DNA of 64,000 nt from Candidatus Thorarchaeota archaeon (GTDB taxonomy: Archaea > Asgardarchaeota > Thorarchaeia > Thorarchaeales > Thorarchaeaceae). The DNA is taken from NCBI GenBank assembly GCA_029858305.1, contig JAOUFI010000007.1, forward strand, positions 763 to 64,762. Direction: 5' to 3'. This document shows, piece by piece, positions 45,818 to 54,139 of the stretch; the first letter of the stretch is position 1, and each line of letters starts with the position of its first letter. Under the pieces are notes generated by a model. That model saw only the letters and a program-made list of their open reading frames with translations. It was not told where the DNA came from and did no database searches. Both the position numbers and the translations under genes were made by a program.

Positions 45818-46846
45818 GTGATTCTTGCAGCTGGAGTCGGGGAACGTGCTCGTCCACTTACTGATCAGATCCCCAAAGCTTTAGTGAGTGTTGCAGGACG
45901 AACACTCCTAGACTGGAGCTTGCACGATTTCTCTCTTGCAGGAATTCAGAACATAACCCTTGCCATTGGCTACAAGGCATCATTGATAGAGAAACATCTC
46001 CAATCAGACGAGCAGCAAAAAGATTGTGAGTCAAGTATCACTATTGTTCCTGTTCAGGATTATGAGATTGGACCACTTAGAACCGCTTTATCTGCCATTG
46101 AAACTTTTTCTGATGAGGAATTCTTCATTTGCCCTGTAGATGCAGTTGTGGGAGCTGATAATATCAAAGATTTGCTAAACAAGTATGAGTATTCAAGGGG
46201 GATGGTTCTGGCTGTCGATTATACAGCAACTTCAGGAACTCCTGTCTACATAGACAAAGATGGGTTTGTTGTAGGATTAGGAAACTCAGTGCCAGAGGGT
46301 GTGTTTTCAACTGGACGAAGTGCGATGATGCTGATTGCTAATAGAACAATAGTTGATTACTGCAGGTCTGCATTATTACAAAATGAGAATCGTCTAGTAT
46401 TTGCTCTTAATCGGATGATAAATGATGGAATCCCATTATACTGTCATGAAGTACACTCAAAATGGTTCGATATCGATACGCTCTCGGATATTATTTTACT
46501 CAATCGTCACCTACTTGAGAGCAGAGTTGCACAAGATGTTAGAAGAGGTCTCTTTGTTCCTAACGGTGATTCGATACAGATAGGTGATAGCCTTGTACTG
46601 AAGGACTCAGATGTTGTTGTGAATGCGAATGTCCATCTTCAAGGTCCTGTTTTATTATTACCTGGTTGTAGAATTGACCAGGACAGCAGAATTGGTCCAA
46701 ATGTCACTATCGGGTTGGCTGCAAGAATTTCAGAGAATTGTGAACTTATCAACACAATTGTATATGGTAAATCTGCTGTACATGCCAATAGCCATATTGA
46801 AAATGCGATAGTCTATGGCTCAAAGATATATCATGCGGAGTTGTAA
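45818..46846 (+). CDS. Sugar-phosphate nucleotidyltransferase with C-terminal LbH domain
   Basis: ILAAGVGERARPLT...PKAL, WFDIDT, hexapeptide repeats. Confidence 0.88.
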   Translation: MILAAGVGERARPLTDQIPKALVSVAGRTLLDWSLHDFSLAGIQNITLAIGYKASLIEKHLQSDEQQKDCESSITIVPVQDYEIGPLRTALSAIETFSDEEFFICPVDAVVGADNIKDLLNKYEYSRGMVLAVDYTATSGTPVYIDKDGFVVGLGNSVPEGVFSTGRSAMMLIANRTIVDYCRSALLQNENRLVFALNRMINDGIPLYCHEVHSKWFDIDTLSDIILLNRHLLESRVAQDVRRGLFVPNGDSIQIGDSLVLKDSDVVVNANVHLQGPVLLLPGCRIDQDSRIGPNVTIGLAARISENCELINTIVYGKSAVHANSHIENAIVYGSKIYHAEL

Positions 46847-46849
46847 TCA

Positions 46850-47440
46850 ATGCCTAGTCGGTTTAGAGTCAGAGGCCCCTTCAAGCGAATTGTGCAAATC
46901 ATAGCACGACCCCTTGCACGTCATGGAGTACGTCCTGACACGATAACCTACTTCAGTCTATTTCTTGCAATGATAGCAGCTCTCTCTCTGATTTTATTGA
47001 GTTCTCAGGCACTGTTCGCAATCCTAGTCTTCCTTGCTGGGCTTTTTGATGGTGTTGATGGTGCCATCGCCCGACTTAATGACAGCTCTTCAAAACAGGG
47101 GGCCTTCTCTGACTCCGTTGTAGATAAGGCGGCTGAGTTGCTGATTCTAGGCTCCATAGGAGTTGCTTATCCTTCCACGGATTTACTGGGACTGCCCGTA
47201 TCATTATGGATCGTTCTCTGTATCTTTGGATGGCTAATGACAAGTTACACACGAGCTCGAGCTGAAGGTTTGGGCATAACGGATCTTGATGTCGGACTTG
47301 GAGGAAGATCTGAAAGACTACTCACTCTCGTTATCTTCTCATTATTTGGTCTTCTTCTCTTAGGATTAATAATAGTGACAGCCTTGGGCCTTGGCACTGC
47401 TGCATATCGGGTGTACCACTATGAGCGGCAGCTCAAATAG
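46850..47440 (+). CDS. CDP-alcohol phosphatidyltransferase (archaetidylinositol-P synthase/PgsA-like)
   Basis: DGVDGAIAR...GAFSDSVVD signature, SYTRARAE. Confidence 0.9.
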   Translation: MPSRFRVRGPFKRIVQIIARPLARHGVRPDTITYFSLFLAMIAALSLILLSSQALFAILVFLAGLFDGVDGAIARLNDSSSKQGAFSDSVVDKAAELLILGSIGVAYPSTDLLGLPVSLWIVLCIFGWLMTSYTRARAEGLGITDLDVGLGGRSERLLTLVIFSLFGLLLLGLIIVTALGLGTAAYRVYHYERQLK

Positions 47441-47530: not shown

Positions 47531-47950
47531 ATGCCCAATTTTAGAGCTGATCATTATCTTCTCGCAGAATTCGAGGGGACTCCAGATACTAAGAAGGTTG
47601 GAGAAAAAGTTCTCCAAGCCTTGAAGGAACTACCGGAACTCAAAGATCTTGCCATTGTATCAAAGAGATTAGAGGGGAAGTCATGGTCTGAGATTCTTGG
47701 TCGAATCGACATTCCTGCCGGATCAAGGGCTTTCTGGGCCATGATTAAGAAAGAGTTCTCAGAACGGGAACCCTACCATCTATTCATCCGTTTCGATATG
47801 AATGCAGAGGGTGAGAATATCGACGCAGCTCGTGCAAATGTGAAATTTTGGATTGAAGAGAACGTTGCACCTAAAATTCAAGCCAAGACCTCTGTCAAAA
47901 CATTGAAAGTTCTTCAAGCTAATGAAATCTATATGCCAAAGCTCGAATAG
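47531..47950 (+). CDS. Soluble hypothetical protein
   Basis: 139-aa ORF fills the gap; no recognised motif. Confidence 0.65.
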   Translation: MPNFRADHYLLAEFEGTPDTKKVGEKVLQALKELPELKDLAIVSKRLEGKSWSEILGRIDIPAGSRAFWAMIKKEFSEREPYHLFIRFDMNAEGENIDAARANVKFWIEENVAPKIQAKTSVKTLKVLQANEIYMPKLE

Positions 47951-47953
47951 GTT

Positions 47954-48967
47954 TCAAGTATCATTAAAGTCAATAATATACAGCGTATTTCCTACAGCCT
48001 GCACGATCTCGCGTTTCTTATCGCCATCGATATCGCCAACAGCAAGATTCGATTCTGTTGACTTCTTGGAGGTCTTCAGTGTTGCCTCCTCAGTGATTCT
48101 TTTGCCAACTAGAGTCAATAATGTAATATTGGAGTTGGCATGACTGACCACTATTTGACCGCGTGCAGGTTCTAAATTCCAAAAACGCCCCATTCGTACC
48201 ACATTAACTGGATTGGGTGCTTTTATGGAATCAATCCTTTCCATTGTCCCCTTAACTATTCCATACAAAGTAAGTGTCTTCCCATCAGAAACGGTCATTG
48301 CTTCATAAGTTTCATCATCTGTAATGTCCCCTGTAGAAACAAGCCCCACATCTCCTCCAACGCTGATTCTCGCTCGTTCATGCAATCTATCATCACCATA
48401 TTGATAGATGTAGAAGTATCCTGAATCATCTCCGAAGATAAAACGACTATAGGGCATTCCCTTGGTATAGAGCGGTTGGATTGAGAACACTGGTCGTTCG
48501 AGAACTTTATGGGCTAGCTTATCCAAAGCAACATCATACCACCCATAACATCGCATGCTACCATCACTGGTCGCCACAACGACTTCAGCACTCTCATCAT
48601 CTAGAACATTGAGAACTGAAACTGAGGTAGGAAGACTACCTAAAGGAGTTGAAGCCTTTACGCTAAGACAGTCATCCAAAAACACAACTACACGTAGTGT
48701 GTTATCAAGTCCACCGATGACAAAGTCCTTTACCCCATCACCAGTCACATCTCCAATTCCCATTGCAGCTAAAGGTGGTAGATTCCCTAGTTTGCACCGT
48801 TCTGTAAGAGGATTCTTATCCTCTTGGTGGAATTCATAGACTCTTACATCTCCATTGAGTGTTGATACGACAATATTACTCCTCCCCTTATTTCTTAAAT
48901 CCACAATTTCGACAGATGTGATCACCTCCTTGAAGGTAACCTTTGAAATAACTTCAAGCAAGGTCAT
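47954..48967 (-). CDS. Cytoplasmic beta-propeller with FG-GAP/VCBS-like DxDGD loops
   Basis: Repeats GDVTGDGVKDFVIG, NVLDDESAEVVVA, GDITDDETYE, GDIDGDKKREIV; no signal peptide or TM segment visible. Confidence 0.75.
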   Translation of the reverse strand: MTLLEVISKVTFKEVITSVEIVDLRNKGRSNIVVSTLNGDVRVYEFHQEDKNPLTERCKLGNLPPLAAMGIGDVTGDGVKDFVIGGLDNTLRVVVFLDDCLSVKASTPLGSLPTSVSVLNVLDDESAEVVVATSDGSMRCYGWYDVALDKLAHKVLERPVFSIQPLYTKGMPYSRFIFGDDSGYFYIYQYGDDRLHERARISVGGDVGLVSTGDITDDETYEAMTVSDGKTLTLYGIVKGTMERIDSIKAPNPVNVVRMGRFWNLEPARGQIVVSHANSNITLLTLVGKRITEEATLKTSKKSTESNLAVGDIDGDKKREIVQAVGNTLYIIDFNDT

Positions 48968-49095: not shown

Positions 49096-49641
49096 ATGGG
49101 CAGAGAAAAAGAGCCACTCAATCTTGATGAAACCGAGTGGACTTCCACATCGGAAACTGTTGCAAAGGACCTTCAATCTTTTGTAGATGAGTTCGGCTCA
49201 TTCACACCGCAGCATTTCGCTGAAGTTAATTTCCATCTTCTTCGAGGTACGAGTTTGACTAAAACAAGTCGCGATGAGCTTTGTGAAATATCAATTCACA
49301 TTAAGACCTGTCCCAAATGCGATTTCTTGTATGTTGCAAAGAAATGTCTACTCTGGTCACGGCTCTATAAAATGGTGACTTGGGAAATCATAGAGAGAAC
49401 ACCCCCATGTATTCGATTAGCCTTTGCGAAGAGAACAATTAAGACTGTCACAAACTATCTTGTAGCAGTCAATGTACTGGCTCCTCCTTTCTTTAAATCA
49501 CGAAGGGCTCCATCCTGTATTGCTATGCGTCACTGGGGTTATTGCCATCCGAACGAATATTGCAAAGCAATGAAGACAGGCAACACCTTCGAGTATATAG
49601 CAGCTCGAGAACGAGTGAAACTTTCGCGAACACACCCTTGA
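49096..49641 (+). CDS. Small Cys-rich protein resembling the Fe-S C-terminal domain of primase PriL
   Basis: PPC-x35-(PS)C-x8-C-x5-C...N.FEY pattern; also an HxxxCxxC motif. Confidence 0.6.
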   Translation: MGREKEPLNLDETEWTSTSETVAKDLQSFVDEFGSFTPQHFAEVNFHLLRGTSLTKTSRDELCEISIHIKTCPKCDFLYVAKKCLLWSRLYKMVTWEIIERTPPCIRLAFAKRTIKTVTNYLVAVNVLAPPFFKSRRAPSCIAMRHWGYCHPNEYCKAMKTGNTFEYIAARERVKLSRTHP

Positions 49642-49701
49642 AAGTATTCCTTGTTATGGCTTAAATAGCAGGTCTGATATCAAAACTCGGAGTTATCTAC
49701 T

Positions 49702-51210
49702 TTGCAGAATAATGTAGATGTGGATGCCATTCGCCTAATCCGCCTCACTGGACTTAAAGAGAGTGAAATTGCCGATGCAAGAAACCAAGGTGGTGAGAGC
49801 TGGAGTAAAATTGCCCGGTCAATCAAAGAACACGAACAGCTCATCTCAATGGGTGAAAAGCATACAAGGCAAAAAGCCATTCAGGATCCCGTTCATGGAG
49901 CTATTCTATTTGATCCATGGGAGCTAGACATCATCTCATCCTGGGAAATGCTTCGGCTTCGATATGTGATGCAGCTTGGACCTGCACATATTGTTTATCC
50001 TGGGGCTACACACACTCGGTTCCAACACTGCCTAGGCACTAATTTTCTTGCCCAGAAGTCAATCCGTGTGGTGAATTACTGTGAAGATCTTGATTGTGGT
50101 CACTTTACTCCTTTCTCTAACCTGCTTGATGATTATCAGAGGAAATTGTTTAGAGCATCAGCCTTGCTTCACGATGTTGGCCATCCACCCACTTCTCACA
50201 CCATCGAGTTCGCCCTACAGTCTTGGGCTGGCATCAATCACGTAGATCTGGGAGAGTATTTAGTCCTAAATAGTGGACTCACTGACATCCTCCAAAAGAA
50301 CGATATAGAACCACAGGATATAATGAGTATTCTGAGAGGAAAAACCAACAATCCTGTATTGAGGATTCTCCATGACTTTCTAGATCATCCCTTAGATATC
50401 GATAAAACAGACTATTTGATTCGGGATGCACATTATAGTGGTGTACAGCTAGGAGTATTTCCTGCTGAACGAGTTATGCTAACCAACCGCGTAGTTATGG
50501 ACAGAGAAGGAAAATACGTTCGTGCTTTCATGTTGAAAGCAATACACTCTCTTGAGTCTCTGATTCTTAGTCGCAATTGGATGTTCTCTGACCTGTATCT
50601 TCACCATGCAGTAAAACTTGCAGAGGCTCTTGTGTCAAAAGCAACATACTTCAGAATGGAAGAAGAATCTCTTACAAAGAATGAGTGTATCGGTCTCTTT
50701 ACCAGAATGAATGATAGCGACCTCTTCCGCTGGCTCTCCGAATCGGAGGTTGCTTTCGTTAGGGAATATGTATCACGAATCCGATATAGACGGCTGTTCA
50801 AGGTGGCTCTTCTTAGACCTCTTGTGGCATTTGAACCAAGTGCTAGAAAGAAGCTTCTCCTGATGCTCGATGAAATCACTAATCTGATTGAAACAGAGAA
50901 TGAGCTCTCAGAGGAACCTGGCAGCGTAGTAGTCGACGTTGTAGTTCCAGAATTAGGAGAAAAGACCTTGAGTAAGATACCACTCCTGATTGGTGGTGAA
51001 CGAGGTTTCGACCTTGTAGGTCTGGATGAAACAAAGGAGGGCTTTCCTCTTCTGCAGATTCTGAAGCAGCAATCACGAACAATCCCATCAGTTCGTGTAT
51101 ACTCAGAACCTAAGATTGCTAACGCTGTCAGGAAGAAGTTTGAAGAACTATTTCCACCAGCAGATATTCCTACATATCGGGAAGATGAATATGATTTTCT
51201 AGAGTATTAG
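49702..51210 (+). CDS. SAMHD1/YwfO-like HD-domain (d)NTP triphosphohydrolase
   Basis: QDPVHG, RLRYVMQLG, YPGATHTRFQHCLG, LHDVGH, DIDKTDYLIRD. Confidence 0.88.
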   Translation: MQNNVDVDAIRLIRLTGLKESEIADARNQGGESWSKIARSIKEHEQLISMGEKHTRQKAIQDPVHGAILFDPWELDIISSWEMLRLRYVMQLGPAHIVYPGATHTRFQHCLGTNFLAQKSIRVVNYCEDLDCGHFTPFSNLLDDYQRKLFRASALLHDVGHPPTSHTIEFALQSWAGINHVDLGEYLVLNSGLTDILQKNDIEPQDIMSILRGKTNNPVLRILHDFLDHPLDIDKTDYLIRDAHYSGVQLGVFPAERVMLTNRVVMDREGKYVRAFMLKAIHSLESLILSRNWMFSDLYLHHAVKLAEALVSKATYFRMEEESLTKNECIGLFTRMNDSDLFRWLSESEVAFVREYVSRIRYRRLFKVALLRPLVAFEPSARKKLLLMLDEITNLIETENELSEEPGSVVVDVVVPELGEKTLSKIPLLIGGERGFDLVGLDETKEGFPLLQILKQQSRTIPSVRVYSEPKIANAVRKKFEELFPPADIPTYREDEYDFLEY

Positions 51211-51884
51211 AGTAGATGCTTGATGTTTTCAATGACTTTCCTGAAACCATGTTCCATCTGAATGATTCCAAAGATAGCCTCAACAAGTGTTCCCTTATCA
51301 TGCTCTATCTCAGCTTTGCCTGGAACATCAGGATCAAAGTGAATTCTATGTTCGTAGAGTCCCCATCGATCGCACAGGTTTGCCATGTGCATGTTACTAA
51401 CAATCTCTGATTTTTCTTGTGTGATGTGCCCGACATCACTTGGATCTGGTTGCCATAACTGGTACAATACGCCCATATCAATTACAGAGTCCCCAAGCAG
51501 AGCTATCACCTGAGCTATCTCACTTAACGCTATTAGGTCTGCGAACTCGTGATCCTCTAATGGATTGTTCCTCTCATTCTTATAATGCGTGTCTAGCTCT
51601 AGGAATAGGTTCTTTGTACTTGGCTGGAACATTACTACCTGTACGATTTCGATATTTTTGATTCTTATATCTAGAATTTTCTCTAACTTTGGAATCAACT
51701 GACGACGAATATACTCCAAGCGTATCTGTACTTCTTTAAGTTGCTCTCTCCATCGGTCGATTTTTGCATGGAGCCGTGTCTTGTTCGCTTGGGTTTCCTT
51801 TCCTGTCTGATCTATAGCTTTCAATAAGACCTCGAGCTTTTTTTCTATGTGAATAGGTTTCAAGGAGAGTTTCATCCGACTCAA
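51207..51884 (-). CDS. RNase III-domain protein without dsRBD, N-terminal coiled coil
   Basis: LLGDSV, VSN..MA.L...GL, GTLVEAIFG match the RNase III signature blocks. Confidence 0.72.
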   Translation of the reverse strand: MSRMKLSLKPIHIEKKLEVLLKAIDQTGKETQANKTRLHAKIDRWREQLKEVQIRLEYIRRQLIPKLEKILDIRIKNIEIVQVVMFQPSTKNLFLELDTHYKNERNNPLEDHEFADLIALSEIAQVIALLGDSVIDMGVLYQLWQPDPSDVGHITQEKSEIVSNMHMANLCDRWGLYEHRIHFDPDVPGKAEIEHDKGTLVEAIFGIIQMEHGFRKVIENIKHLL

Positions 51885-51897
51885 GATTTCATCCTCC

Positions 51898-52671
51898 TCA
51901 GTAATAGCTTATCTCGGCATTTGTCCTATCATATCTCGTTACACGGAAAGCAGTGATTGAGTACTCAATTGCAAGCTTTGCCATTGCTAGGGTGACCAAT
52001 GACGGCCCGAGAGTCAAATCGATTACCATATCGTGAATAAAGATGTTATCAATTATTCCTGCCTCCATGAAATCAACAGTGCCTTGTAAGTTTCCATATT
52101 CTGTTTCATCATCAGTTCCCGTAACCTCGTCTGGGACTTCAATCCATTCTGTTGTCCAACGTCGGAAAGCATCATCAGGTATGAATCGATCAACTATCCT
52201 TGATACACCTCGAGTCCAGTGTCTTGCCTCCACGAAAACAAGCAATTTCTTTGGATTGAAGTAGGGATTGTTTGTTAACCACTGTACAAACGGTCGTTGA
52301 TCCTCAGGTCGGCTAAGAGACGTAACATACAAAAGCGGTTTTGAGATTCCTAACGCTCTCCGAACAGGATGAATAGCTCTTGGCTCAAGTTCAAAAAGGC
52401 GGTATTGAGATTGTTTCCAGCTGACGATAATCCCCAAGTCTTCGAGGCGTCCAGTGTTATGATAAAGCTTGGGACTAGTCACCTCAACCTTCTCAATCTC
52501 CCTCTTACTCGCACCCTCCACCATCATCTGTGCCTTGATGTCCGTAGCAATCTTCTCTCTAAGTTCTGCGCCAGTCTTCAGTCCTCCCTCAAGTTGATCA
52601 AGAATAATCCGTCTTGCCCTCACTGTTTCAATCTCTTCTTTGATCATATCTTCAAGGGATTTTCGGAGCAT
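51898..52671 (-). CDS. wHTH + CARF-like Rossmann domain regulator
   Basis: N-terminal wHTH (KLYHNTGRLEDLGII..W); C-terminal strands LYVTSLS, KKLLVF, EWIEVP, MVIDLTLG...LAM..LA, TAFRV follow CARF order. Confidence 0.62.
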   Translation of the reverse strand: MLRKSLEDMIKEEIETVRARRIILDQLEGGLKTGAELREKIATDIKAQMMVEGASKREIEKVEVTSPKLYHNTGRLEDLGIIVSWKQSQYRLFELEPRAIHPVRRALGISKPLLYVTSLSRPEDQRPFVQWLTNNPYFNPKKLLVFVEARHWTRGVSRIVDRFIPDDAFRRWTTEWIEVPDEVTGTDDETEYGNLQGTVDFMEAGIIDNIFIHDMVIDLTLGPSLVTLAMAKLAIEYSITAFRVTRYDRTNAEISYY

Positions 52672-52947
52672 TTTATCACACTATCCGCGGATATATTATC
52701 TAGTAATCTCATGTATTAACCTTTTATACTTATCGAAGATAATGTCCTCTCCTGCCTGAAAAACGCTCAGAAAAGCCTCTACAATATACATTGTTAAGAT
52801 ACTTTTCGAAAAGAAAGAGGGGCCGTCCGACGAACCCTTAAATAGAATTTGCAGAAACGGTGTAGTAGCAAGGAGCTTCTCTAGCTCTGAACTGGCGAAT
52901 CTGAATTTCTGGATTTGTCTAAAATTAAAATACACGAGGACCGAAAA

Positions 52948-54087
52948 ATGGCTGAAGACGAGTTTCTTGGCGCAAAGCCGATTGTCATTGACAACGGCAC
53001 TGGATTGAGCAAGAACGGATACGCCGGCGAAGATCAGCCACGAAGTGTCTGGCCGACTCTGATTGGTTATCCAAGATATGAGTCAATCATGACCGATGTT
53101 GATCACTACACACGTGACTACTACATCGGTGAAGAGGCTATCAACCTACGTGGTGTCCTACGTCTGGTTTACCCGATCTCTCATGGAATTGTAGAAGACT
53201 GGGATGCCATCGAGAAGATTTGGAGCTACACGTTCTATAACGACTTGAAGGTAGACCCAAGCGAGAACCCGGTGCTCCTCACTGAGGCACCATTCAACCC
53301 CAGAGAGAACAGAGAGCGTATGGCCTCCGTCATGTTTGATAACTTCGGAGTACCCGCAGTATATGTTGCCACACAGGCAGTGCTATCACTGTACGCATCT
53401 GGTAGAACAACTGGTCTAGTCATCGACTCTGGTGACGGTGTGACCCACATAGTACCAATCTATGAGGGCTTCTCAATCAATCATGCCATCCGCAGAATCG
53501 ATTTAGCTGGAAGAGACATCACCGAGTATCTGCGCAGACTACTCAGACAGAGGGGTTACTCCTTTGTCAGTGGTGCAGAGAAAGAGATTGTCAGAGATGT
53601 CAAAGAGAAGCTATGTTACGTAGCTCTCGATCCCGAGAGGGAACGAACTGTTGCTGACAAGGCTGGTGTCGACAAACCCTACATGCTTCCTGATGGTGAA
53701 GTAATCACTGTTGGTGCAGAGAGGTTCCAAGCTCCTGAGTTGTTCTTCAACCCAAGTGCTATTGGTCTTGACACAATGCCACTCGATGAACACATTGTCG
53801 AGTCAATCAAGGCTTGTGATGTCGACTTGCGACGTGACCTGTACGCCAATGTTGTGCTATCCGGCGGTTCAACTATGTTCCCTGGACTCAAGGAGAGACT
53901 CCACAAGGAGATCACCGAACTAGTACCCGAGAACATCGAGGTTCGTATCATTGCTCCACCAGAGAGACAGTACTCTGTCTGGATTGGTGGTTCTATCCTC
54001 GGCTCACTGAAGACCTTCCAGAAGATGTGGGTCTCAAAGAAAGAGTTCGAAGAAGTCGGACCCGAAGTCATACACCGCTGTATCTAG
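52948..54087 (+). CDS. Asgard (Lokiactin-type) actin
   Basis: [73 protein letters not shown]; ATG 52948 behind GAGG. Confidence 0.97.
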
Positions 54088-54139
54088 TATACAATTAGTT
54101 TACCGAAGAGGGAGTCTTTCCCTCTTCGCTCTCTTGTTT
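54038..54139 (+). repeat. Actin 3' end + terminator, copy 1 (functional gene)
   Basis: Direct repeat of 54775-54870. Confidence 0.9.
54104..54128 (+). terminator. Actin terminator hairpin
   Basis: CGAAGAGGGA-GTCTT-TCCCTCTTCG (10-bp stem) followed by a T-rich tract. Confidence 0.75.

Follow-up and report, generated by a model that had tools for sequence, protein, structure and literature searches.

The question raised by this locus is whether four genes beside an actin gene of a Thorarchaeota archaeon act together, and whether they do so in defence or in the housekeeping of the cell. They occupy positions 49096-52671 of the window, by which we mean the whole stretch of 64,000 nucleotides that was analysed. 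An earlier interpretation, here called the sequence-only reading, had seen in them an undescribed nucleotide-sensing or nucleic-acid surveillance system, either a new defence/signalling module or a housekeeping checkpoint tied to the actin promoter.

According to the ORF list, a protein of 181 aa (ORF1; 49096-49641) and an HD-domain protein of 502 aa (49702-51210) are encoded on the forward strand, and a wHTH-CARF protein of 257 aa (51898-52671) and an RNase III-like protein of 225 aa (51207-51884) on the reverse strand. The HD and RNase III-like ORFs share 4 bp because their stop codons overlap, the TAG of the former being located at 51208-51210 and the TAA of the latter being the complement of 51207-51209. 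Between the stop codon of the CARF gene and the TTG start of the RNase III-like gene there are 13 nt, which include a GGAGGA Shine-Dalgarno sequence. The sequence-only reading had described the four ORFs, the convergent overlap of 4 bp, and the gap of 13 nt correctly. All four ORFs are real genes; for each of them, intact orthologs are found in almost every genome sampled from the family. Upstream of the wHTH-CARF gene, a divergent promoter region of 276 nt (52672-52947) is common to this gene and to a lokiactin-type actin gene on the forward strand (52948-54087; Pfam Actin, 5e-133). The actin start is likely the ATG at 52948 and not the TTG at 52915 reported by the ORF finder, since the Shine-Dalgarno sequence and ATGGCTGAAGA are conserved in relatives.

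In one Thorarchaeia family (f1), nearly all genomes carry each of the four genes in a single copy; the synteny of the four spans approximately 10 genera there and is embedded in a longer syntenic block. At the family level, this block includes genes for an NTP_transferase-like protein (45818-46846, forward), a CDP-alcohol phosphatidyltransferase-like protein (46850-47440, forward), a 139-aa ORF (47531-47950, forward), and an FG-GAP/ITFG2/BBS-like beta-propeller (47954-48967, reverse), the protein names being read from the sequence. The first two are also found near the CARF-actin pair in Baldr-, Hermod-, and Atabeyarchaeia. The region is a stable part of the Thorarchaeia core genome and no defence island.

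This distribution bears directly on the proposal that the four genes constitute one antiviral or nucleic-acid surveillance module, in which the CARF protein would sense a signal, the HD protein deplete dNTPs, the RNase III-like protein cut dsRNA, and the Fe-S protein sense DNA. The family of each component acts on nucleotides or nucleic acids, and the synteny over these genera speaks for such a module. However, defence systems are typically patchy, whereas these genes are core and single-copy, in a block with housekeeping-type genes and actin. They are also separable: the HD gene is lost in genome G024 and ORF1 is decayed in G028, with the remaining genes intact in both cases. As expected by the sequence-only reading, PADLOC returned no full system but domain-level matches only, namely CARF_m5, a profile for the CARF part that can be counted in favour of a module, and a weak dGTPase match (3.7e-5). 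A complete anti-phage system of PADLOC-DB 2.0 was therefore rejected for the locus, and the scores of the HD protein against anti-phage dGTPase models were far below the cut-offs.

Known signal synthases do not co-occur with these genes either. Neither cas nor cyclase genes are located at the locus, as had been noted before, and no cas genes were found in the window region and at related loci. Cas10 and SMODS are absent from the whole assembly, which is 89% complete. Among 61 genomes of the family, 8-9 are matched by Cas10 models and none reveals SMODS above the cut-off, i.e., no CD-NTase; the 10 genomes of the source genus have no Cas10 match. Compared with the wHTH-CARF gene, which 57 of the 59 family genomes sampled carry, these numbers speak against an accessory role of its product in type III CRISPR or CBASS. 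Outside the Thorarchaeia family the four genes are unlinked, so that the linkage across Asgard genomes on which the sequence-only reading had staked its proposal breaks down there. In view of these findings we consider a surveillance module very improbable, and the four-gene arrangement mostly represents lineage-specific gene order.

The component that deserves most attention is the wHTH-CARF protein. Residues ~1-107 form an ArsR/PadR-type winged helix and residues ~113-257 a CARF Rossmann-like domain. AF2 reached a pLDDT of only 39 on the lone sequence; a good model (pLDDT 88.4, pTM 0.84) was obtained with an alignment of 38 sequences. When this protein was compared with the PDB by Foldseek, all 30 matches at E <= 0.001 were CARF proteins, including Csm6, Card1, Cdn1, Cam1, Can2, and the ring nuclease Sso2081, with Csa3 and Cad1 just short of this threshold; the N-terminal domain matched ArsR/PadR regulators. 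A sequence search of the PDB gave no match. The CARF_m5 profile of PADLOC covers residues 12-246 (E 1e-20), and the order of an N-terminal wHTH and a C-terminal CARF domain, as originally proposed, is confirmed by profile, model and structure search alike. The match to CARF_m5 means that this family, or one closely related to it, is already on record as a CARF clade; the profile presumably comes from the CARF census that Makarova et al. published in 2020. The named database homologs are all from Asgard archaea and are annotated as hypothetical proteins or PadR/ArsR regulators. Across the phylum, P112, P122, D218, and G222 are nearly invariant in the orthologs, and so is the D218-x-T/S-x-G222 loop, which follows strand 214-218. 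The conserved loops typical of CARF domains, after the first and the fourth core strand, are present and, by analogy, make up a putative ligand site.

All orthologs of the wHTH-CARF gene that were found come from Asgard archaea, where 12 families have approximately one copy per genome. In 10 of these 12 families (81 loci) the gene adjoins actin, always in divergent orientation with the promoter region in common and with gaps of ~90-600 nt. This adjacency covers Thor-, Odin-, Baldr-, Hermod-, and Atabeyarchaeia as well as the families f2, f6, f19, and f21. Among 28 newly sampled loci from outside the Thorarchaeia, 23 adjoin actin, one ends at a contig edge, and four are not adjacent. Almost no other neighbour stays linked to the pair across lineages; in Odinarchaeia not a single further gene of the block is kept beside it. 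Outside the Thorarchaeia, only CoM-biosynthesis-like or CDP-alcohol transferase genes were found downstream of the CARF gene, so that a search for a conserved partner there gave none. Thus, the wHTH-CARF gene is the ancient element of the locus, having remained head-to-head with actin while the other neighbours changed. Its position in many Asgard lineages suggests that its product may regulate actin under the control of a ligand, although frozen synteny could in principle account for the adjacency. The suggestion that a housekeeping function is linked to the actin promoter therefore gains support for this gene, but not for the other three. Literature searches on CARF together with actin, Asgard, RNase III, or Thorarchaeota, whose scope excluded the 2020 CARF census and a 2020 Asgard CRISPR paper, yielded nothing relevant and no mention of a CARF-actin linkage.

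The linkage has exceptions. In the families f7 and f28 the wHTH-CARF gene sits away from actin, and many Asgard families, probably including Loki- and Heimdallarchaeia, have actin without an ortholog of the gene. Any regulation is thus neither universal nor obligatorily in cis.

The promoter region itself shows features on both sides, with promoter and transcription start positions being predictions from the nucleotide sequence. A predicted TATA box of the CARF gene (52690-52699, reverse strand) would, by its position, imply a leaderless transcript. The predicted BRE/TATA element of actin, CCCTTAAATAG, is located at 52835-52845 and would be followed by a leader of ~82 nt with a hairpin at 52872-52888, for which covariation is the basis, and the Shine-Dalgarno sequence GAGGA at 52936-52940. 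In a footprint alignment at the genus level (20 genomes), strongly conserved non-coding boxes appear symmetrically upstream of both TATA boxes. Two of them are direct copies of ATACTT[A/T]TCGA, at 52724-52742 and 52797-52813, and each precedes one of the TATA boxes by ~36-39 nt. In a phylum-wide operator search against a shuffled control, the TATA boxes were the sole motifs above control. A GAYGATATCG element occurs in three lineages, and GATATCG/TATCGA is enriched in Odinarchaeia, the Baldrarchaeia family f15, and f19; as these motifs were picked after viewing the sequences, they serve as a lead only. A sigma-70 promoter scan is uninformative here, the host being an archaeon.

Conserved boxes near the TATA box of the wHTH-CARF gene itself would also be expected if the protein regulated only its own gene and those downstream, and divergent regulators are often autoregulators. 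In the same vein, the protein might act on actin post-translationally, e.g., as a nucleotide-dependent binding partner. For either variant one may cite the two families which hold the gene away from actin. However, pure autoregulation leaves the persistent adjacency to actin across many lineages without a reason, and nothing found here supports a protein-protein contact. We consider this pair of explanations improbable.

The RNase III-like protein is composed of an N-terminal coiled coil of ~120 aa and a nuclease domain that extends to the C-terminal end. PF00636 matches with 2.4e-9, and the family profile retrieves Drosha RIIIDa (3e-12) and bacterial RNase III (2e-6) from the PDB, so that the initial call of an RNase III fold holds. 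No dsRBD was detected in a Pfam scan. The signature is A-x-x-G-D ... T-x-x-E, in which two of the four canonical carboxylates are kept; the equivalents of E. coli E41 and D114 are A128 and T199. A class 1 enzyme of the bacterial type was ruled out, given the lack of a dsRBD and of the full set of four catalytic carboxylates. In the Thorarchaeia family the gene is single-copy in 37 of 37 genomes and always directly follows the CARF gene, to which its start is translationally coupled by the Shine-Dalgarno sequence; it was found in none of 24 other Asgard genomes. The wider protein family comprises ~100 representative clusters, including one from Methanoculleus, where neither a CARF gene upstream nor any of the partner genes was found.

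One may ask whether the wHTH-CARF and RNase III-like genes form a housekeeping operon for RNA processing, e.g., for rRNA maturation in the manner of Mini-III, with the position next to actin as inherited gene order. The A-x-x-G-D / T-x-x-E signature persists throughout the large family, a remote member of which carries the JGI label mini-RNase III, and the tight coupling to the CARF gene, which holds for all genomes of the Thorarchaeia family, fits such a unit. Yet the RNase is absent from all other sampled Asgard families, most of which keep the CARF-actin pair; the older and wider association is therefore the one with actin and not with the RNase. The invariably divergent orientation with a common promoter region also speaks against inherited order. 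An RNA-processing unit of this kind appears rather unlikely to us.

The two forward genes are more loosely attached. With HD (PF01966, 7e-7) and HD_assoc_2 (PF19276, 1e-17) domains, visible H...HD...D motifs, and PDB matches to 2hek (3e-31), EF1143 (2o6i; 5e-27), and SAMHD1 (7e-19), sequence comparison confirms the HD protein as a member of the EF1143/SAMHD1-type dNTP triphosphohydrolase family, in line with its first assignment as SAMHD1-like. This paralog is specific to the Thorarchaeia and extended by ~55 aa at its N-terminus, and orthologs with at least 56% identity are limited to family f1; a second HD paralog (433 aa, ~35% identity) occurs in most Asgard genomes sampled. The genome from which the Thorarchaeia paralog is deleted, G024, is 99% complete.

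Of 37 genomes sampled from the Thorarchaeia family, 35 were found to carry ORF1, which also has homologs in Baldrarchaeia and f7 that are unlinked to the partner genes. Eight Cys residues are invariant (C63, C72, C75, C84, C105, C141, C150, and C156), and at the C-terminal end four Cys form the pattern PPC...SC...C.P...C, which resembles a shorter version of the Fe-S site of the PriL C-terminal domain. An alignment of the ORF1 family with Asgard PriL by hhalign (probability 33%, E 4.6e-4) pairs each of the four C-terminal Cys with one of the four Fe-S Cys in PriL, and a weak PDB match to PriL 9f26 (E 2.6) covers the same stretch. Pfam and PDB searches otherwise gave no match for ORF1, and across the genome PF04104 detected only the canonical PriL, encoded elsewhere. 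With the four Cys in agreement, the early assignment of ORF1 to a PriL-CTD-like fold is plausible, but no more than that.

Taken as a whole, the locus is best explained by an orphan CARF transcription factor that acts on the promoter region common with actin and to which the Thorarchaeia added an RNase III-like gene, a dNTPase paralog, and a Cys-rich gene. We grant this explanation slightly better than an even chance. The CARF domain would bind a nucleotide-like ligand, and the winged helix would bind the intergenic region between the regulator gene and actin, thereby adjusting how much of the actin mRNA and of the regulator's mRNA is transcribed. The Thorarchaeia family would have extended the regulator's transcript by the gene of an RNase III-domain protein, which is translationally coupled and represents a separate, Mini-III-like class, probably an RNA-processing enzyme with nuclease activity, and the space beside it would have been filled by the lineage-specific dNTPase paralog and the Cys-rich, possibly Fe-S, protein. 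A bolder version is tentative, and we would not expect it to hold in full: in a large part of the Asgard archaea, actin transcription might be gated by the orphan CARF factor in response to a nucleotide-type messenger that does not stem from Cas10 or a CD-NTase, and the Mini-III-like RNase of the Thorarchaeia may act on a structured actin leader.

To our knowledge, almost nothing is known of the control of actin in Asgard archaea, and what is known concerns protein partners (profilin, gelsolin) and not gene regulation. A sensor-regulator gene locked to actin across Asgard lineages provides a concrete handle on actin gene control. Should the proposed explanation be true, it would give a CARF domain a clear role outside immunity; the bolder version would link a second-messenger sensor fold of prokaryotic immunity to cytoskeleton control in the closest prokaryotic relatives of eukaryotes.

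Each of the four proteins can be set against a known system. In comparison with the C-terminal [4Fe-4S] domain of PriL, ORF1 lacks ~40 residues between the first and the second Cys; unlike PriL, it bears another four invariant Cys upstream and lacks the N-terminal domain of PriL. The HD protein has the HD and HD_assoc_2 domains in common with EF1143/SAMHD1-type dNTPases, but differs from these as a lineage-specific second paralog, dispensable in at least one genome, with an N-terminal extension.

The RNase III-like protein resembles Mini-III (class 4 RNase III; B. subtilis MrnC; PDB 4oun) in having an RNase III domain without a dsRBD. B. subtilis Mini-III carries the same A-x-x-G-D and T-x-x-E substitutions. 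In contrast to Mini-III, a stand-alone protein of ~140 aa, the archaeal protein adds the ~120-aa coiled coil and has an insert of ~25 aa before the G-D motif; 4oun scores an insignificant E of 0.58 against the family profile, the best PDB matches being Drosha RIIIDa and bacterial RNase III. Catalysis by Mini-III needs no dsRBD, and RNase III occurs only sporadically in archaea (PMC3867540).

The closest counterpart of the wHTH-CARF protein is Csa3 (PDB 2wte, 6w11), likewise a CARF sensor fused to a wHTH, with ~230-260 aa. A weak Csa3_N Pfam match in one member of the wHTH-CARF family adds to the likeness, and the presumed logic, by analogy, is ligand-controlled transcription in both. An identity with Csa3 is nevertheless ruled out by the lack of cas genes in the window region and related loci and by the domain order, as Csa3 has an N-terminal CARF domain and a C-terminal wHTH and the order is reversed in the wHTH-CARF protein. 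The genomic setting differs accordingly: Cas10 is absent from most genomes with the wHTH-CARF gene, and whereas Csa3 is encoded in cas loci, the conserved neighbour of the wHTH-CARF gene is actin.

All four ORFs lie exactly where a sequence-only reading had placed them on this contig of a Thorarchaeia MAG (3.04 Mb, 205 contigs, 89% complete): ORF1 at 49096-49641 and the HD gene at 49702-51210 on the forward strand, the RNase III-like gene at 51207-51884 and the wHTH-CARF gene at 51898-52671 on the reverse strand. The ORF coordinates of the HD and RNase III-like genes share 4 bp because the stop codons of the convergent genes, TAG (51208-51210) and TAA (51207-51209), overlap. The 13-nt gap from the CARF gene to the RNase III-like gene is equally as described, with the CARF TGA followed by GGAGGA, seven nt and a TTG start, a spacing that would be typical of coupled translation. 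As an observation, that reading was largely right.

It had taken the four genes as a defence or signalling module, or else as a housekeeping dNTP/RNA checkpoint tied to the actin promoter. Each of the four proteins was searched in 61 related genomes. The CARF protein is present as a single copy in 46 of them, other Asgard families included. For the RNase III-like protein, 37/37 genomes of the source family (f1) encode exactly one copy, and 0/24 other Asgard genomes have any. ORF1 occurs in 35 of the 37 f1 genomes; homologs were also found in one Baldrarchaeia and two f7 genomes, away from the other genes. Synteny of the four genes across Asgard is not seen: outside f1, CARF loci are devoid of the other three (ORF1, HD and RNase III-like).

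Within f1, nine genes form a collinear block shared by about 10 genera: NTP-transferase, CDP-alcohol transferase, orf139, FG-GAP propeller, ORF1, HD, RNase III-like, CARF, actin. Linkage of the four genes is thus no more than a part of this family-level order. Even there, the four-gene set is not obligate, since the HD gene is cleanly deleted in genome G024 (99% complete; L063 4843-6044), where ORF1 abuts the RNase III-like gene, and ORF1 is a 42-aa remnant in G028 (L021 281-403), where a further stop-containing copy sits on a different contig. PADLOC returned no system-level match. A defence island would look different: these genes are near-universal, single-copy, vertically inherited and located beside actin. 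A four-gene defence module is thus not supported; these are f1 core genes without obligate linkage or a PADLOC system. The main rival to the regulatory reading developed below is a housekeeping RNA-processing operon with inherited gene order. The tight coupling of the RNase III-like gene to the CARF gene in f1 is what it would build on, and the CARF-actin pairing outside f1, where the RNase III-like gene is lacking, speaks against it; we regard it as rather improbable.

Outside f1, CARF loci keep one feature: the CARF gene is divergent from, and directly beside, actin. A scan with one genome per species recovered 21 related loci from Odin-, Baldr-, Hermod- and Atabeyarchaeia and from 'Promethearchaeota' MAGs. 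Actin is head-to-head with the CARF gene in at least 16; among the remainder, two lie at a contig end and one, from an f7 MAG, is without actin in its vicinity. When 251 Asgard genomes were searched with a profile, full-length CARF orthologs turned up in 12 families (f1, f2, f3, f6, f7, f8, f12, f13, f15, f19, f21 and f28), as a rule a single one in each genome; the 149 genomes of other families yielded none. In 28 further non-Thorarchaeia loci, actin is adjacent and divergent in 23, one locus is at a contig edge and four are non-adjacent (three f7, one f28). Altogether, divergent CARF-actin pairs were counted in 81 fetched loci, a tally in which some genomes appear twice because two search routes led to them; the gaps measure about 90-600 nt. 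In genomes without an ortholog, scanning the regions beside actin with the profile uncovered no hidden CARF gene, save two additional positives (families f6 and f13). The proposed link to the actin promoter hence survives for the wHTH-CARF gene by virtue of this divergent adjacency, and falls for the other three genes. No description of the linkage was found in the literature searched; a CARF census probably lists the protein family.

In Odinarchaeia, the CARF-actin pair occurs without any other gene of the block, while in Baldr-, Hermod- and Atabeyarchaeia the CARF gene has an NTP-transferase/CDP-alcohol-transferase pair on the side away from actin. The corresponding NTP-transferase-like and CDP-alcohol-phosphatidyltransferase-like genes (45818-47440 in the window) are likewise near CARF-actin in Thorarchaeia, and their persistence suggests that actin sits within an ancient syntenic core. 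The FG-GAP beta-propeller of the conserved block (47954-48967) is intracellular, with weak Pfam matches to ITFG2, BBS2, BBS7 and RSE1/DDB1 propellers; in an f2 genome such a propeller directly follows the CARF gene (L032 7523-8497). Read by eye, CARF-flanking genes in f19, Atabeyarchaeia and f7 resemble coenzyme M biosynthesis genes, with ComA-, ComB- and ComDE-like N-termini (L084 1-2952, L058 6664-7422, L039 6674-8185).

The CARF gene and actin share an intergenic region, which would be the conserved target of the CARF transcription factor. Actin likely starts at ATG 52948, not at TTG 52915 of the ORF finder, because an SD (GAGGA) and the ATG are conserved in relatives. Aligning this region across 20 congeneric genomes delineated conserved non-coding blocks: a TATA element for the CARF gene, 23 nt from its start codon, implying a leaderless CARF transcript; the actin BRE/TATA CCCTTAAATAG at 52835-52845; and a predicted actin leader of ~82 nt (52866-52947), long for an archaeon. 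Two direct ATACTT[A/T]TCGA boxes (52724-52742 and 52797-52813) each lie 36-39 nt upstream of one TATA box. All TSS and operator positions in this region are predictions. The leader opens with a 6-bp hairpin (52872-52888), for which 19 Thorarchaeia leaders exhibit compensatory changes in four of the six pairs; inspection by eye shows comparable hairpins in the actin leaders of Odin and Hermod. An unbiased phylum-wide k-mer count yielded nothing but TATA boxes above the shuffled control. GAYGATATCG precedes the actin TATA in Odin (4/4), Baldr f15 (3/3) and f19 (6/6), and is only a lead since it was picked out by eye. Directly after the actin stop, a strong terminator-like hairpin of 11 pairs with a T-rich tail is located at 54104-54128.

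As to the other three proteins, the HD assignment holds: Pfam detects HD (7e-7) and HD_assoc_2 (1e-17) in the 502-aa protein, and a PDB sequence search matched solved EF1143/SAMHD1-type enzymes (2hek 3e-31, 2o6i 5e-27, SAMHD1 7e-19). It is an f1-specific paralog with at least 56% identity within f1; a second HD paralog (~433 aa, ~35% identity) occurs in most Asgard genomes sampled. ORF1 was proposed to be PriL-CTD-like. Its family has eight invariant Cys, and Pfam and PDB searches gave no significant match. A profile-profile comparison with Asgard PriL reached 33% probability (E 4.6e-4) and aligned C105, C141, C150 and C156 to the four PriL Fe-S Cys across a ~40-residue deletion, so the PriL idea is plausible, but unproven. 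In Baldrarchaeia G043 (L060 4297-7636), an ORF1 homolog is directly upstream of, and in the same direction as, an 868-aa DEAD/Helicase_C protein carrying the MrfA Zn-binding domain, a hint that the Cys-rich protein may act in DNA repair or on nucleic acids.

The RNase III call is borne out by PF00636 at residues 126-223 of the 225-aa protein (2.4e-9). The family profile matched Drosha RIIIDa (3e-12), bacterial RNase III (2e-6) and Dicer (~1e-5), and Mini-III at only 0.58. There is no dsRBD, and the first ~120 residues form a coiled coil. D132 and E202 (E. coli D45, E117) do not vary among the Thorarchaeia orthologs, and the equivalents of E. coli E41 and D114 are A128 and T199. B. subtilis Mini-III has the same two substitutions and is active. 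An exhaustive search extended the coiled-coil family beyond Asgard, to about 100 representative clusters. In 58 full-length members plus the query, the motif tally was A 54/59, D 58/59, T/S 50/59 and E 54/59; decay is ruled out as the origin of A128/T199, as the pattern holds through these 59 sequences. By its motif, the family is an RNase III class of its own. A dsRBD is dispensable for Mini-III activity, and archaea possess RNase III only sporadically (PMC3867540). In the non-Asgard locus examined, that of A3CSM4 from Methanoculleus marisnigri (CP000562, L117 5001-5717), no CARF gene precedes the RNase III-like gene, and RNase-CARF coupling is therefore a Thorarchaeia acquisition. This member has G-N in place of G-D, and its gene comes after one for an apparent membrane protein of 202 aa; an HD/HD_assoc gene is found at a distance of four genes.

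For the 257-aa wHTH-CARF protein itself, neither Pfam nor a PDB sequence search gave a match; the PADLOC profile CARF_m5 did (1e-20, residues 12-246), and several family members matched PadR/HTH_20 models of Pfam. An AF2 model built from 38 diverse homologs is confident (pLDDT 88.4, pTM 0.84) and places a winged helix at residues 1-107, ahead of an alpha/beta domain at 113-257. All 30 Foldseek matches with E <= 0.001 are CARF proteins (Csm6, Card1, Cdn1, Cam1, Can2, ring nuclease Sso2081), with Csa3 and Cad1 next at 1.5e-3 to 3e-3, and the N-terminal domain was matched by ArsR/PadR regulators. Model, Foldseek and PADLOC thus agree with the original wHTH-CARF call. Across the phylum there is next to no variation in the D218-x-T/S-x-G222 loop or at other loop residues, which argues for a functional pocket. 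Named homologs are all Asgard, e.g., from Candidatus Thorarchaeota archaeon SMTZ-45, and annotated as hypothetical or PadR/ArsR regulators.

Among 59 f1 genomes sampled, 57 carry the CARF gene. Cas10 models matched in only 8-9 of 61 f1 genomes, in 0/10 sampled genomes of this genus and nowhere in this assembly, and SMODS (CD-NTase) was never above cut-off in the genomes searched; the protein is therefore an orphan with respect to known synthases. On balance, we lean towards an Asgard-only, CRISPR-independent, domain-swapped transcription factor of Csa3-like type whose conserved target would be the promoter region shared with actin. Compared with Csa3, the protein is similar in kind, but its domain order is swapped and it is independent of CRISPR.
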